From contig JBAXRR010000003.1 in the NCBI GenBank assembly GCA_037131125.1, positions 3,682 to 67,681 of the forward strand: a DNA stretch of 64,000 nucleotides, read 5' to 3'. Below the pieces are notes generated by a model, which saw nothing but the letters and a program-made list of their open reading frames with translations, was not told the DNA's origin and searched no databases. How positions within the stretch are numbered: position 1 is the first letter of the stretch; the number at the start of each line of letters is the position of its first letter. Below, piece by piece: positions 3,623-48,791 of this stretch. A program made the position numbers and the translations under genes. The stretch is from a bacterium (GTDB lineage Bacteria; Patescibacteriota; Dojkabacteria; GCA-016699595; JBAXKR01).

Positions 3623-3936
3623 TTTATTTGCTCTACAAATCAGCAGGGGAGAGGGGAGTTGTTACTTTCTAATAATCCAAGTTAAACATAAATATATAAC
3701 TATAGGTCATTATCTTATAGTTATTCTTGTATTGATGTAATAATTACAACATGTGAAACATCTCAAATTGTGGATAACTAGGCAATCGGTGGGGAAGTAG
3801 TACCTTTTTACTTCACTCCTGCATAACTATCTGTAACTAATCCCTATGAAAGTAGAAGTATTTGAATAAATGTACTGAATAATACTGTTATTAAAGGATA
3901 ATTGAATATATGCTCTTTTAGCAAAAGAGAGAGGTA

Positions 3937-3964
3937 TTGACAGGAATATATTATCGAGTATAAT
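3937..3964 (+). promoter_or_regulatory. near-consensus sigma70-type promoter (TTGACA, 16 nt spacer, TATAAT) about 245 nt upstream of the recombinase gene
   Basis: Sequence ttgacaggaatatattatcgagtataat read directly. Confidence 0.35.
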
Positions 3965-4209
3965 CACTCTTATATGCCGTTTGCGGTATAAGAAGCGAAG
4001 GGTATATGGCTTTTGTCATATATTTATAATATTCTATTAATACTGTTTTAAGGTTCTTTTTTATATTATTTATTTAATTATTAAGTTATTTTTGACTAAT
4101 ATTTTCTCTCAATATTCTATTTATTTCTCTTAGCCTGAGATTTCAATAAAATGGCTAAATATAGGTAAATTGGGGGTTTTGTCAAAATTAGCACTCACCT
4201 ACTTAAATC

Positions 4210-45415: not shown

Positions 45416-46534
45416 TTATCTGCTAACTTTATTCTTCACCATTTCAGATAACTCTTTTATCTTTGGATTGTCAAGATATTTAGTAGCAGGTGCAAGAATA
45501 TTAATTAAAGATCTTGCTACAGCATCCTTAAGATCCATAGGATGTAGTTTCTTTTCAACGAAGTCTTTTTCTAGTTCTTCATATGTTGTATATGTCTTAT
45601 CTCCACCCCACTCTGTTTTTCTTTTTATCTCTATAGTCTTAGTTCCAAGTTTAAAACAAACATGTTTAGACCAGTCAAGAACTGGATTAAGCTTAACTTG
45701 TCCTTCTGGACAGAATGCTTTCATAATCTTTTCTTTAATTAATTCTGGAGAATCACTTAAGAATACTGCACTCATAGGTTTACTTTTGCTCATCTTTGCC
45801 TCAGCTAGATCTTCTCTAGTAAGTTCACCTTTAGCTTGTACTTCTTTAGATGGTGGAGTTAGTCCTCCAAGTAAGTGATGATGGATTGCAATTGGAGAAA
45901 TTCTTTCATCTCCTGCCATCATGGGTTTAATTTTTACTGACTTAGCTACATCAAGAGCTATTACGTGAGCTTTTCTTTGATCCATTCCTGCATGCATTAT
46001 TTGTGTTTGCATGTAGTAAATATCTGCAACTTGCATTGCAGGGTAGATTAGTTTTGCAAAGTCAGTACTTTCTCCTTCTTTTCTTCCCATAATATCTATA
46101 CTTCTTTCAATTCGAGCAAGGGAAGTGTTCTTGGCAATATCTATTACACATGCCCAGTAATCTGATGAATCCACAATATCTGATGCCTTTACAAACTCTA
46201 TTTCATCATATTTAGCACCAACCATTAATGCAGATGCTTTGAATAGCTCTTTGAATAGAGGTATTCCTACTTCATCCATGAATTTAAGATCGCCACCTAA
46301 TTTGTCATTAATCCATGCGTGCCAATCTGCTAAAAATATTGTGCAGTGAACTCCAAGATCTTGAAGTTCTTTTATTACAAGCATTGCACTTACAGCGTGT
46401 CCTATATGGAGATTACCTGAAATTTCAAGACCTATATAGTGCTTGAGAGGGACTTTCTTATCTAAAAGTCTTACTAAAGTATCTTCTCCAATGATTTCTT
46501 CCGTAACGCTTTTTAGTTTTGTTATGTCTGTCAT
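45416..46534 (-). CDS. tyrS: tyrosyl-tRNA synthetase, archaeal/eukaryotic type (class I; no bacterial S4-like C-domain)
   Basis: HIGH and KMSKS motifs. Collinear similarity to archaeal TyrRS (YIG.E.SG..H.GH, LAD.HA..N, YP.MQV.DI.Y, HPMDLK.AVA), with the Tyr-recognising Tyr and Asp positions conserved. Confidence 0.7.
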   Translation of the reverse strand: MTDITKLKSVTEEIIGEDTLVRLLDKKVPLKHYIGLEISGNLHIGHAVSAMLVIKELQDLGVHCTIFLADWHAWINDKLGGDLKFMDEVGIPLFKELFKASALMVGAKYDEIEFVKASDIVDSSDYWACVIDIAKNTSLARIERSIDIMGRKEGESTDFAKLIYPAMQVADIYYMQTQIMHAGMDQRKAHVIALDVAKSVKIKPMMAGDERISPIAIHHHLLGGLTPPSKEVQAKGELTREDLAEAKMSKSKPMSAVFLSDSPELIKEKIMKAFCPEGQVKLNPVLDWSKHVCFKLGTKTIEIKRKTEWGGDKTYTTYEELEKDFVEKKLHPMDLKDAVARSLINILAPATKYLDNPKIKELSEMVKNKVSR

Positions 46535-46599
46535 GCTTGTATTTTAGCAGATTAGAAAAATAAAATGGAAAGAGAAATAATATTAATTATTTTTCCTCT

Positions 46600-46845
46600 T
46601 TATATTGTTGTTTCACTTTCTTTCTGAGAGTTATCATTACTTGCCTGCACAGTTTTTAGTTGTATATTTTGAGATCCAACCATAACTGGAACTGGTTTTA
46701 ATAATACAGATGAAATTTTTTTATGAAAACGAACTGTAACTGGTGCTTCTCCTTCCACATAGAGAATCCCTTTTACACCTTTGGGTAAAGTTGTATCTTC
46801 GTGTACAAATGCACTTTCTGGGTTTGCATGAATTGTGTCTGGCAT
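46600..46845 (-). CDS. hypothetical small protein
   Basis: 81 aa ORF between tyrS and tRNA-Tyr. Confidence 0.4.
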   Translation of the reverse strand: MPDTIHANPESAFVHEDTTLPKGVKGILYVEGEAPVTVRFHKKISSVLLKPVPVMVGSQNIQLKTVQASNDNSQKESETTI

Positions 46846-46882
46846 ATTAATAAAAATAATAAATTATATATAAAAATTTGTA

Positions 46883-47089
46883 TTACATATTGTATTCAGC
46901 TCTTTGTGAATGTACGTTATCTACTCTTGCATCAATAGGGAGTTGCTTGCCTCTCTCATTTACTATAACTATGCTAGTGACTCGGTTAAGAGCATCTCTT
47001 AATTCGCTATTTGCTTCCAATGCTCCTGGTAACCTTAATTCGTCACCAACTAACATCTCGTTGCTTTGTTCTCCTACTACTGTTGCCAT
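46883..47089 (-). CDS. hypothetical small protein
   Basis: 68 aa ORF. Confidence 0.4.
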   Translation of the reverse strand: MATVVGEQSNEMLVGDELRLPGALEANSELRDALNRVTSIVIVNERGKQLPIDARVDNVHSQRAEYNM

Positions 47090-47118
47090 GATGTATAAAA
47101 TAAAAAATAAATATAAAA

Positions 47119-47150
47119 ATAGAAAATAAAAAATCCCACTTGTGTGGGAT
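47119..47150 (-). terminator. intrinsic terminator (second of two in tandem)
   Basis: Minus strand AATCCCAC-acaa-GTGGGATT followed by TTTTTATTTT. Confidence 0.55.
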
Positions 47151-47175
47151 TCTTATTTTCTTACTAATTTCTTAG

Positions 47176-47202
47176 TACAAACAAAAATCCCGCCTATGGG
47201 AT
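47176..47202 (-). terminator. intrinsic terminator (first of two)
   Basis: Minus strand ATCCC-ataggc-GGGAT followed by TTTTGTTTG. Confidence 0.5.
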
Positions 47203-47253
47203 GACTAGTCGAATAAAATAAATTTTGTTTGTTCTTTGAGTTTTCACGAGATG

Positions 47254-47281
47254 ATTATAATACTCTTGGGATGATTGTCAA
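47254..47281 (-). promoter_or_regulatory. consensus sigma70-type promoter (TTGACA, 16 nt spacer, TATAAT) 14 nt downstream of the tRNA-Tyr 3' end, reading into the two terminators
   Basis: Minus strand ttgacaatcatcccaagagtattataat read directly. Confidence 0.4.
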
Positions 47282-47295
47282 TATATTTAAACATT

Positions 47296-47369
47296 TCCGC
47301 AGGGAAGGATTCGAACCTTCGAATACTGGATTTACAGTCCAGGGTCTTAAACCACTTGACGACCTGCGG
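47296..47369 (-). tRNA. tRNA-Tyr (anticodon GTA), class-I-like with a 5-nt variable loop, C1:G72 and A73; CCA not encoded
   Basis: Manual fold. Acceptor CCGCAGG/CCTGCGG, U8, D-arm with A14 and G18G19. Anticodon stem CTGGA/TCCAG with loop CT-GTA-AA. T-arm GAAGG-TTCGAAT-CCTTC. Confidence 0.85.
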
Positions 47370-47391
47370 ATAGGTATATTAAGTAGTCCTA

Positions 47392-47421
47392 ATTCTAAAG
47401 GATTGCATACCCACTAGTCAA
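47392..47421 (-). promoter_or_regulatory. candidate promoter of tRNA-Tyr (TTGACT, 18 nt spacer, TAGAAT)
   Basis: Minus strand ttgactagtgggtatgcaatcctttagaat, about 20 nt upstream of the mature tRNA 5' end. Confidence 0.35.
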
Positions 47422-47439
47422 AGGAAAAGCCCAATATTC

Positions 47440-48450
47440 TTAATCTCTTGAGCTAACTGCACTTGATGCTCTTGATGAGGTGCTTAGTCTGGATTCAGTG
47501 TTATCACTGGATTCACTACTAGTTCTTTTATCTATTAATGCACCTATTTGTTTTAAGTATGATTTGATTTTAGCAATGCTTTGTTTTGCTTTAGCAAGAT
47601 CGTCTCTTCCTAAGTTTCCTTCATCTTTTGCAGGTTTTGTGTCCTTTGCAGCAACCATAGCATTAAACTTTGTTTCTGCATCTGTTACATAAGTTTTTGC
47701 AGTATTCAATTCTGTTTTAGAATTTGTAAGGTATTCGTTTATTGAAGTATAGTTAGGAATTGTATCTTGGTTTTCCTGTATTGTTGCATCTACTCTTGTA
47801 AGTGTTGTTTCTAATTTCCCAAGGAGGAATTCAAGCCTGTATGAAGCCAATAGACCATATATCTTAGGTCCAAACGTTGCATATATTCTATGCCCCTCAT
47901 AAACGTTTCTTACTTCTGCTTTTAGGTCATCTAGATTTGTTAATCCTTGAATTTTAGCTTTCTCAGTTTGAAGATCTGAAATCTGTTCACTTATTAGATT
48001 GATAAGCTTTGTCTTATTTGCACTTGAGATGTTTGTCTCACTTGTAACCTTTGAGGTAAGTCTATTGGATAAGAAGCTGATTCTTTCATCTATTATTTTA
48101 GTTCCTAGTTCAATAAGCTTAGCTACTTTGTCTGCTGTTTTTGCAGCTTTGTAGGAAGTAAGAGCTGAGTTCGCATCCTTAAGAGTCTCTTCTACACTTT
48201 TAACGCTAGTTTCTTTTGAAGTTGTAGTAAGACTTCTTGAGGTTTCACTGGCTCTACTTTCTGAAGTTCTTGTAGCACTTATAGGTCTAATAGAAGTAGT
48301 TTTAGATGAACTTGATGATGACCTACTAGATTCAGATGCTCTGGAACTACTAGTAGAACTAATAGCGTTAACAGATGTAAGTAGAACACTTGATCCAAGT
48401 GTAAAGTACATTATTAAGGAGATTATGAAGATATTTTTAATAGTTTTCAT
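47440..48450 (-). CDS. secreted Ser/Thr/Arg-rich coiled-coil protein, unknown function
   Basis: Signal peptide, S/T-rich ends and a central heptad-like region. Confidence 0.45.
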   Translation of the reverse strand: MKTIKNIFIISLIMYFTLGSSVLLTSVNAISSTSSSRASESSRSSSSSSKTTSIRPISATRTSESRASETSRSLTTTSKETSVKSVEETLKDANSALTSYKAAKTADKVAKLIELGTKIIDERISFLSNRLTSKVTSETNISSANKTKLINLISEQISDLQTEKAKIQGLTNLDDLKAEVRNVYEGHRIYATFGPKIYGLLASYRLEFLLGKLETTLTRVDATIQENQDTIPNYTSINEYLTNSKTELNTAKTYVTDAETKFNAMVAAKDTKPAKDEGNLGRDDLAKAKQSIAKIKSYLKQIGALIDKRTSSESSDNTESRLSTSSRASSAVSSRD

Positions 48451-48473: not shown

Positions 48474-48791
48474 TTAAAGTGCAGGTGCAGTATCTCTTGC
48501 TGTATCTATACTGTCTGCTTCTTTTAATGTTGCATCTATTTGATTAATTATTGTATCTGTTTCTCCTTGTACGCTATTAAGTCCACTTTGGTTAATTGAT
48601 TCTACAGAAGAACTAGCAGAACTGTCCGATGATGTAGTAAGACTTCCTATTGAAGTTGCTTTACTTGTTGTGCTTGCACTTGTAGATTTCTGATTAAGAA
48701 AGTAGAGTCCTGCAACTATTAGGACAATTAAAACTACTATGATTACTGCCAATATTACCAATATATTAGCTTCTTTTTTTTCACCTTCCAT
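48474..48791 (-). CDS. small membrane-anchored Ser/Thr-rich protein
   Basis: N-terminal TM and S/T-rich ectodomain. 105 aa. Confidence 0.4.
   Translation of the reverse strand: MEGEKKEANILVILAVIIVVLIVLIVAGLYFLNQKSTSASTTSKATSIGSLTTSSDSSASSSVESINQSGLNSVQGETDTIINQIDATLKEADSIDTARDTAPAL

Follow-up and report, generated by a model that had tools for sequence, protein, structure and literature searches.

A conserved promoter-to-terminator RNA module between tRNA-Tyr and tyrS in Patescibacteria, a candidate leader or short RNA

We analyzed a 64,000-nucleotide (nt) stretch of contig JBAXRR010000003.1 from a bacterium of the Patescibacteriota lineage Dojkabacteria (the window; G+C content, ~33%). On its minus strand, a tRNA-Tyr gene and tyrS, which encodes tyrosyl-tRNA synthetase (TyrRS), flank a promoter, a series of RNA hairpins, and two small open reading frames (ORFs), ORF1 and ORF2 (Table 1). 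An earlier note on this DNA had proposed that a TTGACA-16-TATAAT promoter 14 nt after tRNA-Tyr is followed by two hairpins with U-runs ahead of the small ORFs and tyrS, and had suggested that the interval encodes a small RNA (sRNA) or an attenuation leader. The promoter and both hairpins are indeed present on the minus strand. Here we describe the interval from the -35 hexamer to the ATG of ORF1, which we call the module and which is a conserved unit in three sub-lineages of Patescibacteria/Saccharibacteria-like metagenome-assembled genomes (MAGs).

Table 1. Positions of the features discussed in the text, given in window coordinates except for the ORF1 equivalents, which are given in the coordinates of their own loci
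Feature	Coordinates	Strand	Remarks
tRNA-Tyr(GTA)	47369..47296 (Rfam); 47370..47295 (ARAGORN)	minus	
-35 hexamer TTGACA	47281..47276	minus	begins 14 nt past tRNA-Tyr
-10 hexamer TATAAT	47259..47254	minus	spacer to -35, 16 nt
mini-ORF GUG..UAG, encoding VKTQRTNKIYFIRLVIP then stop	47247..47194	minus	predicted start G at 47247; stop in H1 loop
P1 5' strand ACAAACAAAA	47232..47223	minus	pairs with 47186..47177; inverted repeat
J1, unpaired 5'-side loop of P1	47222..47203	minus	holds UUAUUUUAUUC
H1 hairpin ATCCC-ATAGGC-GGGAT	47202..47187	minus	followed by TTTTTGTTTGT
P1 3' strand UUUUGUUUGU	47186..47177	minus	doubles as U-run behind H1
P2 hairpin ACUAA-GAAA-UUAGU	47176..47163	minus	adjoins P1, no spacer
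A-rich linker AAGAAAAUAAG	47162..47152	minus	
P3 intrinsic terminator AAUCCCAC-ACAA-GUGGGAUU plus U-run	47151..47120	minus	
AT-rich spacer	47119..47090	minus	terminator to ORF1 ATG
ORF1, 68 amino acids	47089..46883	minus	first gene 3' of module
ORF1 equivalents	L001:3592-3780; L002:3576-3857; L081:2018-2272; others		
ORF2, 81 amino acids	46845..46600	minus	between ORF1 and tyrS
tyrS extended -10 TGCTAAAAT	46549..46541	minus	6 nt before tyrS ATG; outside module
tyrS, class-I W/Y synthetase, archaeal TyrRS type	46534..45416	minus	

The promoter-to-terminator block occurs once per locus and always between tRNA-Tyr and tyrS. Its carriers, besides the window, which like L001 and L097 belongs to what we call lineage A, are the loci L001 and L084 (TyrRS 90% identical to that of the window), L097, a Logan contig reached through a Ser-rich neighboring protein (62% identity), and ~16 loci of lineage B (TyrRS ~65 to 67% identical). 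Between the window and L001, the RNA is 91% identical (116 of 127 positions) and the AT-rich spacer behind it 82% identical (~90% within lineage B); identity is 57% at the fourfold-degenerate sites of tyrS and 26 of 60 positions at the start of ORF1. Since the RNA has been kept while neutral sites, the promoter spacer, and ORF1 have diverged, it bears the mark of strong purifying selection. In the comparison of the window with L097, 69 of 71 positions are identical in the 3' part and 28 of 48 in the 5' part. From about the -35 hexamer to the ORF1 ATG, the module has been retained whole, and the sequences on both of its flanks have been replaced. It is absent from L003 and L004 (TyrRS 61 to 63% identical) and from more distant relatives. 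A search with a home-made covariance model, R1, whose E-values are rough, found no second copy elsewhere in the window, none in the TyrRS-related loci L003 to L010, L016, L018, L020, L021, L038, and L080, and none in L098 to L103. Wider genome and metagenome scans and protein searches returned the same three sub-lineages only, the further lineage B contigs being nearly identical to one another.

The promoter matches the consensus at 12 of 12 hexamer positions. Two such matches occur in the window, against 0.17 expected, and at least two were found in 1 of 100 shuffles. TTGACA is unchanged in all 12 distinct module sequences and also in L097, and lineage B has TAGTAT or TAATAT as its -10 hexamer where the window, L001, and L097 have TATAAT. 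Between the hexamers, the spacer is identical at 6 of 16 positions in the window and L001 and has been rewritten in L090 and L095. Because the hexamers are kept while the spacer drifts, the promoter appears to be functional, and on this pattern of conservation it is a real promoter of the sigma-70 type, as the earlier note had supposed. An exact 8-nt repeat, TCATCCCA, is shared by the promoter spacer (47274..47267) and the 5' arm of hairpin H1 (47204..47197) on the minus strand; L001 does not share this repeat, which is probably due to chance.

All of the module sequences share a common fold, in which helix P1 encloses the loop J1 and hairpin H1 and is followed by hairpin P2 and then by hairpin P3. 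In folding analyses, which throughout this work were equilibrium calculations, the 141-nt region folds better than its shuffles (z = -5.7). Changes within the helices were recounted from explicit strand strings. P1 carries two double-sided changes: one pair goes from C-G through U.G to U-A, and a second from A-U to G-C. The strands of P2 are ACUAA/UUAGU (window), ACUGA/UCAGU (L001), and GUUAAG/CUUAAC (lineage B), such that 5 of 6 pairs are altered on both sides between the lineages and one double-sided change is found within lineage A; a perfect hairpin at the P2 position occurs in 3 to 6% of shuffles per lineage. The P3 stem of the window, AATCCCAC-ACAA-GTGGGATT (47151..47132, minus strand), is followed by TTTTATTTT, and its lineage B counterpart, AAUCCCGC/GCGGGAUU followed by U8, shows one compensatory pair, A-U to G-C. 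Within lineage B, 10 of the 11 variable columns are unpaired (p ~0.03). Compensatory changes, for which the earlier note had recommended a comparison with relatives, can accordingly be pointed to in P1, P2, and P3.

The A-rich linker between P2 and P3 is able to pair either with the U-tail of P3 or with the P1 3' strand. A loop-linker pseudoknot (UUAUUUU with AAAAUAA) was considered and set aside, the linker variants of L090 and L092 being uncompensated. In lineage B, the P2 3' arm and linker (L002:3485-3500) read GGUCUUAACAAAA, which resembles the boxA (NusB/NusE) consensus, GCUCUUUAACAA. The boxA-like GGUCUUAACAA is absent from lineage A, lies partly inside P2, and is probably coincidental.

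The two hairpins that carry U-runs differ in how widely they look like terminators. P3, with a G+C-rich stem and a U-run, scores as an intrinsic terminator at every locus, and H1 with its U-run does so in lineage A only. In lineage B, H1 keeps a CCC/GGG core and has an A.C mismatch in its stem, followed by AAC and then a short UUUUGCUU, and the terminator scan of this lineage did not report it. Judged from these alignments, the conserved feature at the H1 U-run is helix P1, which joins the U-rich strand to an A-rich partner, the P1 5' strand. The tandem terminators of the earlier note thus stand for the window's own lineage and not as a conserved feature, and the conservation of the hairpins in relatives, on which it had staked its reading, extends for P3 to every locus and for H1, in lineage B, to the CCC/GGG core only. 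Loop J1 is kept among the window, L001, and lineage B; in L097 it is replaced by a sequence beginning UUAUUGUAGAC, which argues against a small-molecule aptamer. Five terminator-like sites were observed in 6 kb, against 2.6 expected. Such chance statistics are a weak argument, and it is the conservation of the module that is decisive for its reality.

Counting from the end of TATAAT, the 7th base in the window, L001, and L097 opens a GUG codon; lineage B has an AUG 9 nt past the -10 hexamer. The mini-ORF that begins here has 17, 17, 18, and 23 codons in the window, L001, L097, and lineage B, respectively, and its predicted products in the last three are VNTQRTNKTYFTRLAIP, VKIISLNKNYCRQFITIP, and MRQIISKNYFILITHFKRELLLS, each followed by a stop codon. 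The distance of 6 nt from the -10 hexamer to the GUG equals that from the tyrS -10 to its ATG and that seen at other genes. Among the 55 ORFs of at least 110 amino acids in the window, none is preceded by a GGAG/GAGG Shine-Dalgarno sequence, and 11 have, at a distance of 4 to 8 nt from the ATG, a TATAAT match of at least 5/6 (expected number, ~2.5). These counts suggest widespread leaderless mRNAs and Shine-Dalgarno-independent initiation in this genome. In mycobacteria, a 5'-terminal ATG or GTG is both necessary and sufficient for leaderless initiation (PMC4633059). We infer that the transcript of the module starts at the GUG and that the mini-ORF is translated.

Between the window and L097, the reading frame of the mini-ORF is kept despite a net length change of 3 nt and differences at 20 of 48 aligned positions. 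A UAU (Tyr) codon just past the P1 5' strand is invariant. The codons include this one for Tyr and one for Phe, the latter changed to Cys in L097, and no run of codons for a regulating amino acid was found in the mini-ORF. The substitutions within it are all non-synonymous, and its third positions have changed far less than neutral sites have, which argues that selection acts on the RNA, and perhaps on keeping the ORF open, and not on the sequence of the peptide.

The ATG of ORF1 lies ~35 nt past P3, a distance fixed at all loci. The spacer between P3 and ORF1 contains no promoter-like site matching at 9 or more of 12 positions, and no Shine-Dalgarno sequence precedes ORF1. ORF1 is hypervariable, falling into 7 BLASTP-unrelated groups in 11 loci, though the RNA is nearly identical between strains; the ORF1 protein of the window matches only itself among 1.8 billion representative proteins. 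The ORF1 proteins are acidic and without a family match, and they share recurring motifs at both ends (M-x-T-V/E-D at the N terminus and T/E-Y-x-M, directly before the stop codon, at the C terminus) around unrelated middle portions. Comparison of the downstream and neighboring ORFs with PADLOC, PHROG, and Pfam gave no family.

tyrS has an extended -10 element of its own, which occurs as TGCTAAAAT, TGTTAAAAT, and TGCTACAAT; the pattern TGNTA(A/C)AAT is conserved in five lineages (the window and L001 to L004), 6 to 13 nt before the tyrS ATG, and the tyrS mRNA is predicted to be leaderless. A weak AU-rich hairpin with a U-run lies 5' of the tyrS promoter (46600..46560). In lineage B, a terminator-like hairpin follows ORF1. 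Because tyrS has its own promoter and this lineage B hairpin follows ORF1, the module does not appear to be primarily a tyrS leader. The proposal that it serves as the leader of a Tyr-charging operon consequently is not supported in its original form: the gene immediately behind the module is the hypervariable orphan ORF1, and tyrS is provided with a conserved extended -10 of its own.

Overall, the reading that we tentatively prefer is that the module is a cis-acting leader which attenuates transcription and in addition gives rise to an abundant short RNA. Transcription from the sigma-70-type promoter would start at the G of the GUG (at the AUG in lineage B), and the resulting ~125-nt RNA would begin with the leaderless mini-ORF of 17 to 23 codons and fold into P1 (around J1 and H1), P2, and P3. 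Most transcripts would end at P3 and accumulate as a short structured RNA, and ORF1 and whatever lies downstream would be expressed from read-through transcripts only; we infer both the termination of most transcripts at P3 and the dependence of ORF1 on read-through. The fixed distance to ORF1, the conserved spacer, and the lack of a promoter-like site after P3 support this reading. A weak hint comes from Rfam, in which the best matches in both lineages, all sub-threshold, are amino-acid operon leaders. The earlier suggestion of an sRNA or leader is reasonable in the light of the conserved transcript of ~125 nt predicted here, with its own promoter and intrinsic terminator.

Several points weigh against the leader interpretation. 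The transcript start, the termination, and the read-through are predictions, and the covariation rests on three sub-lineages only, so that its statistics are thin. An automatic pair count on the covariance-model-fitted alignment gave a weak result; in that alignment lineage A is one column out of register, and we therefore regard the weak count as an alignment artifact. The P3 3' arm is paired in almost every fold in which a ribosome footprint was masked, so that P3 looks like a very efficient terminator and no mechanism for regulated read-through is visible. An alternative 2:3 pairing is present, without backing by compensatory changes. Finally, the spacer may contain a weak AT-rich promoter for ORF1, in which case the RNA would be an independent gene.

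Such independence is the core of the next explanation, that the module is the gene of a trans-acting sRNA whose abundant ~125-nt product acts elsewhere, either through base pairing or by binding a protein, the adjacency of ORF1 and tyrS being incidental. We regard this as unlikely, and worth keeping in view. The strong promoter and strong terminator of its own and the stable fold are what such a gene would show, as is the constitutive termination that folding predicts; unpaired positions are also constrained between the window and L001, and the module has been kept while the genes on either side were swapped. Against this, the single-stranded 5' third, the usual site of an sRNA seed, is the least conserved part between the window and L097, and conservation runs past the terminator, at a fixed distance, to the ORF1 ATG. 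The RNA also starts with a start codon in a genome in which leaderless genes appear to be frequent, and it would therefore probably be translated. No target was found in a search that covered tRNA-Tyr only.

The remaining leader interpretations turn on whether the RNA can switch. H1 and P3 share a 16-nt direct repeat that is 81% identical, so that an alternative fold is possible in all lineages. In this fold, a helix (of 13 bp in the window) forms between the H1 3' arm plus P1 3' strand on one side and the linker plus P3 5' arm on the other. The P3 3' arm then finds its partner in the H1 5' arm, with the result that a stem still precedes the U-run. In the nascent RNA, the alternative fold is nearly isoenergetic with P1/H1. 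When ribosome footprints were placed on every codon, the P3 3' arm was freed only at codons 13 and 14 in the window and at codon 13 in L001, both of which are non-conserved, and it was never freed in L097 or lineage B. Furthermore, where the P3 3' arm has changed from U to C, the compensating change lies in the P3 5' arm and not in H1, and where the P1 3' strand has done so, it lies in the P1 5' strand and not in the linker. As far as these few changes go, covariation favors P1 and P3 over the 2:3 or 1:4 pairings.

We accordingly hold it doubtful that the module is a ribosome-sensing attenuator, in which occupancy of the mini-ORF, possibly by a ribosome stalled at UAU, selects between P1/H1 and an antiterminator and so gates a hypervariable small-protein locus. 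Under this reading, the gated locus would have been inserted between horizontally acquired archaeal-type tRNA-Tyr and TyrRS genes, and the variable genes, together with part of tyrS transcription, would be coupled to tyrosine charging by a foreign pair.

A version specific to tyrosine, in which a ribosome stalled at UAU opens P1, favors the antiterminator, and permits read-through into ORF1, ORF2, and tyrS, strikes us as improbable. It would account for a mini-ORF in frame in all lineages with an invariant UAU at the edge of P1, for a nearly isoenergetic 13-bp alternative pairing in all of them, and for a locus that in every case lies between tRNA-Tyr and tyrS; leaderless short-ORF attenuators are known from mycobacteria (doi 10.1101/834739), and the weak Rfam matches are to Phe, Trp, and Thr leaders. 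It is opposed by the single Tyr codon, by the finding that in all lineages a ribosome on UAU leaves the P3 3' arm paired (to the H1 5' arm), and by the stop codon, which occupies differing structural positions in lineages A and B. The compensatory changes back P1 and P3 but neither the 2:3 nor the 1:4 pairing, a conserved promoter of its own serves tyrS, lineage B has a terminator-like hairpin after ORF1, and the immediate target, ORF1, has no link to tyrosine.

That the module is a gene for a micropeptide of 17 to 23 amino acids, with the hairpins merely as its terminators, seems to us very improbable. The start codon at the predicted transcript start and a mini-ORF that every lineage keeps open would fit such a gene, as would a shared K-x-Y-(F/C) and the I-I-S-K-N-Y-like stretch common to L097 and lineage B, but the substitutions in the ORF, all non-synonymous and including I to D, place the constraint on the RNA, and the length and C terminus of the peptide vary between lineages.

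A T-box or small-molecule riboswitch controlling tyrS is hardly credible. A position 5' of an aminoacyl-tRNA synthetase gene, a terminator at the end, and UAU codons in an unpaired loop make it a tempting idea, and this is a reading that the present analysis corrects. At gathering thresholds, Rfam found two tRNAs in the whole window and nothing else, and permissive scans of both lineages returned sub-threshold leader and sRNA look-alikes driven by the terminator. The covariance search for a T-box that the earlier note had proposed gave no hit at the gathering threshold or at E<=10 (window 46500..47450; L002), and riboswitch models likewise gave none at E<=10. The RNA is only ~125 nt long, L097 has not kept J1, the loop in which a ligand might be expected to bind, and tyrS is separately promoted; the duplex of the RNA with tRNA-Tyr is no better than that of shuffles, of which 28% and 43% do as well. 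Nor do we give any real weight to the idea of passive tRNA-Tyr terminators with a fortuitous promoter, or one that is an ordinary constitutive promoter for the downstream genes: the window has no terminator between tRNA-Tyr and the module, so that tRNA transcripts must end at H1 or P3, but L001, L097, and lineage B have other genes between the two, the module goes along with the ORF1 side, a different hairpin and T-run follow the tRNA in L001, the promoter hexamers are conserved, and P1 and P2 are kept by compensation though they are not terminators.

Some further candidates were rejected. Signal recognition particle (SRP) RNA, 6S RNA, and an integron attC-like palindrome were considered since the seg1-seg4 region can form one long GAAA-tipped hairpin; there was no model match and no integrase nearby, the GAAA loop is AGGU in lineage B, and covariation favors the three-hairpin fold. 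A mobile-element origin received no support from a blastn search of a phage collection, which gave no match, or from a viral-contig pattern scan, which was empty.

The genes around the module have their own history. The nearest relatives of the TyrRS come from three Patescibacteria/"Saccharibacteria" MAGs and one MAG contig labeled Gammaproteobacteria (90, 65, 63, and 61% identity), and after these four follow DPANN and other archaea at ~50% identity. tRNA-Tyr is of class I, 74 nt long, with a short variable arm, C1-G72, A73, and a CCA end that is not encoded. Together with the nearby archaeal-type TyrRS, it is an archaeal identity pair in a bacterium of the candidate phyla radiation (CPR), and pairs of this kind in CPR bacteria have been described previously (PMC5370408). 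In L018 and L020, tRNA-Tyr genes of 84 to 86 nt lie directly 5' of an archaeal-type tyrS. On the other side of tRNA-Tyr, also on the minus strand, lie a 336-amino-acid protein with a signal-like N terminus and a Ser/Thr-rich tract (48450..47440) and a membrane-anchored Ser-rich protein of 105 amino acids (48791..48474), both of which are syntenic across all lineages. The former has no match to a Pfam family and only ~10 homologues in a search of 5.8 billion proteins; the latter has sub-threshold Pfam matches only.

Between tRNA-Tyr and the module lies a hot spot for insertions, which is empty in the window (47295..47282). It holds an opposite-strand ORF of 361 amino acids in L001 (L001:2207-3292), a homologous same-strand ORF of 328 amino acids in L090 (L090:91-1077), two ORFs of 132 and 115 amino acids in L097 (L097:4504-5260), and two small opposite-strand ORFs in L002 (L002:2815-3304) and in L081. 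None of these ORFs matched Pfam, PADLOC, or PHROG. Many metagenome and Logan contigs (L098 to L103 and L106 to L108) break in or beside the tRNA-Tyr-tyrS interval, and several of them begin 18 nt 5' of tyrS or stop soon past the Ser-rich gene; these breaks are consistent with strain heterogeneity at the locus confounding assembly. Elsewhere in the window, a 590-nt gene-free region (3623..4209) contains the only other 12/12 promoter (3937..3964, plus strand) and, on the minus strand, an 11/12 promoter (4185..4158). An Rfam scan of this region gave no match at E<=0.5, and it may represent another unannotated RNA or a divergent promoter pair.

Patescibacteria (CPR) are uncultivated or epibiotic bacteria with tiny genomes, and to our knowledge almost nothing is known about RNA-based regulation in them; our search of the literature on sRNAs and leaders in CPR and Saccharibacteria found nothing relevant. 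The module is a structured RNA outside the Rfam families, in a phylum in which such elements are essentially uncharacterized. If it is a regulated attenuator, it would show coupling of leaderless translation to termination in such organisms and would indicate that a fast-evolving locus for small proteins is under control. As no more than an sRNA or a terminator that leaks constitutively, it would be one more ordinary entry in the catalog.

Comparison with known systems places the module at some distance from each of them. It resembles the Bacillus-type tyrS T-box (RF00230) in its position near tyrS and in having a terminator, but it has no Stem I, specifier, or T-box sequence and is about half the usual length, and inspection of its RNA by eye showed no UGGU that could pair with the ACCA end of a tRNA. 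Architectures in which a promoter, a short RNA, and a terminator follow one another include the phage lambda PR'-6S RNA-tR' region, type III toxin-antitoxin systems (toxI-terminator-toxN), and riboswitch-terminated leaders that double as sRNAs. The module is like these in its strong promoter, its predicted abundant short terminated RNA, and a gene that would depend on read-through. It differs from them in that its downstream proteins belong to no PADLOC, PHROG, or Pfam family, that phage similarity is absent, and that no antiterminator protein is known for it. A toxIN-like system was rejected, since the RNA contains no tandem repeats, the only such repeat being the low-complexity AAAATAA in the spacer.

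With the leaderless short-ORF attenuators of mycobacteria, the module shares a short ORF that is predicted to open the transcript and to form an operon's first cistron, an apparently wide reliance on leaderless mRNAs, and RNA structure 3' of the short ORF. In the mycobacterial polycysteine leaderless short ORFs, poly-Cys tracts serve as the cysteine sensor, and translation is controlled through the unmasking of a ribosome-binding site (doi 10.1101/834739), whereas the module has neither a codon tract nor a Shine-Dalgarno sequence to unmask and ends in an intrinsic terminator. The likeness to the trp, phe, thr, and his leader attenuators (RF00513, RF01859, and RF00506) lies in the order of promoter and short ORF overlapping RNA helices, in two similar hairpins whose arms can re-pair (1:2, 2:3, and 3:4), and in a terminator directly 5' of the first structural gene. 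Such leaders are the top Rfam matches in both lineages, all sub-threshold: in the scans of the window and L002, Phe_leader scored 29.6 and 23.9 bits (gathering threshold [GA], 55) and Trp_leader 20.7 and 23.7 bits (GA, 41), and Thr_leader scored 21.3 bits (GA, 55). Unlike them, the module has a single candidate sensor codon instead of a run, a leaderless mini-ORF without a Shine-Dalgarno sequence, an alternative pairing that neither covariation nor masked folding supports, and behind it a hypervariable orphan in place of a biosynthetic or charging gene. The module is thus most like the leader-peptide attenuators and the leaderless attenuators of mycobacteria, has neither the codon run nor the model score that define them and no clear switch, and is best filed as a new, narrowly distributed terminator-containing leader or short RNA.

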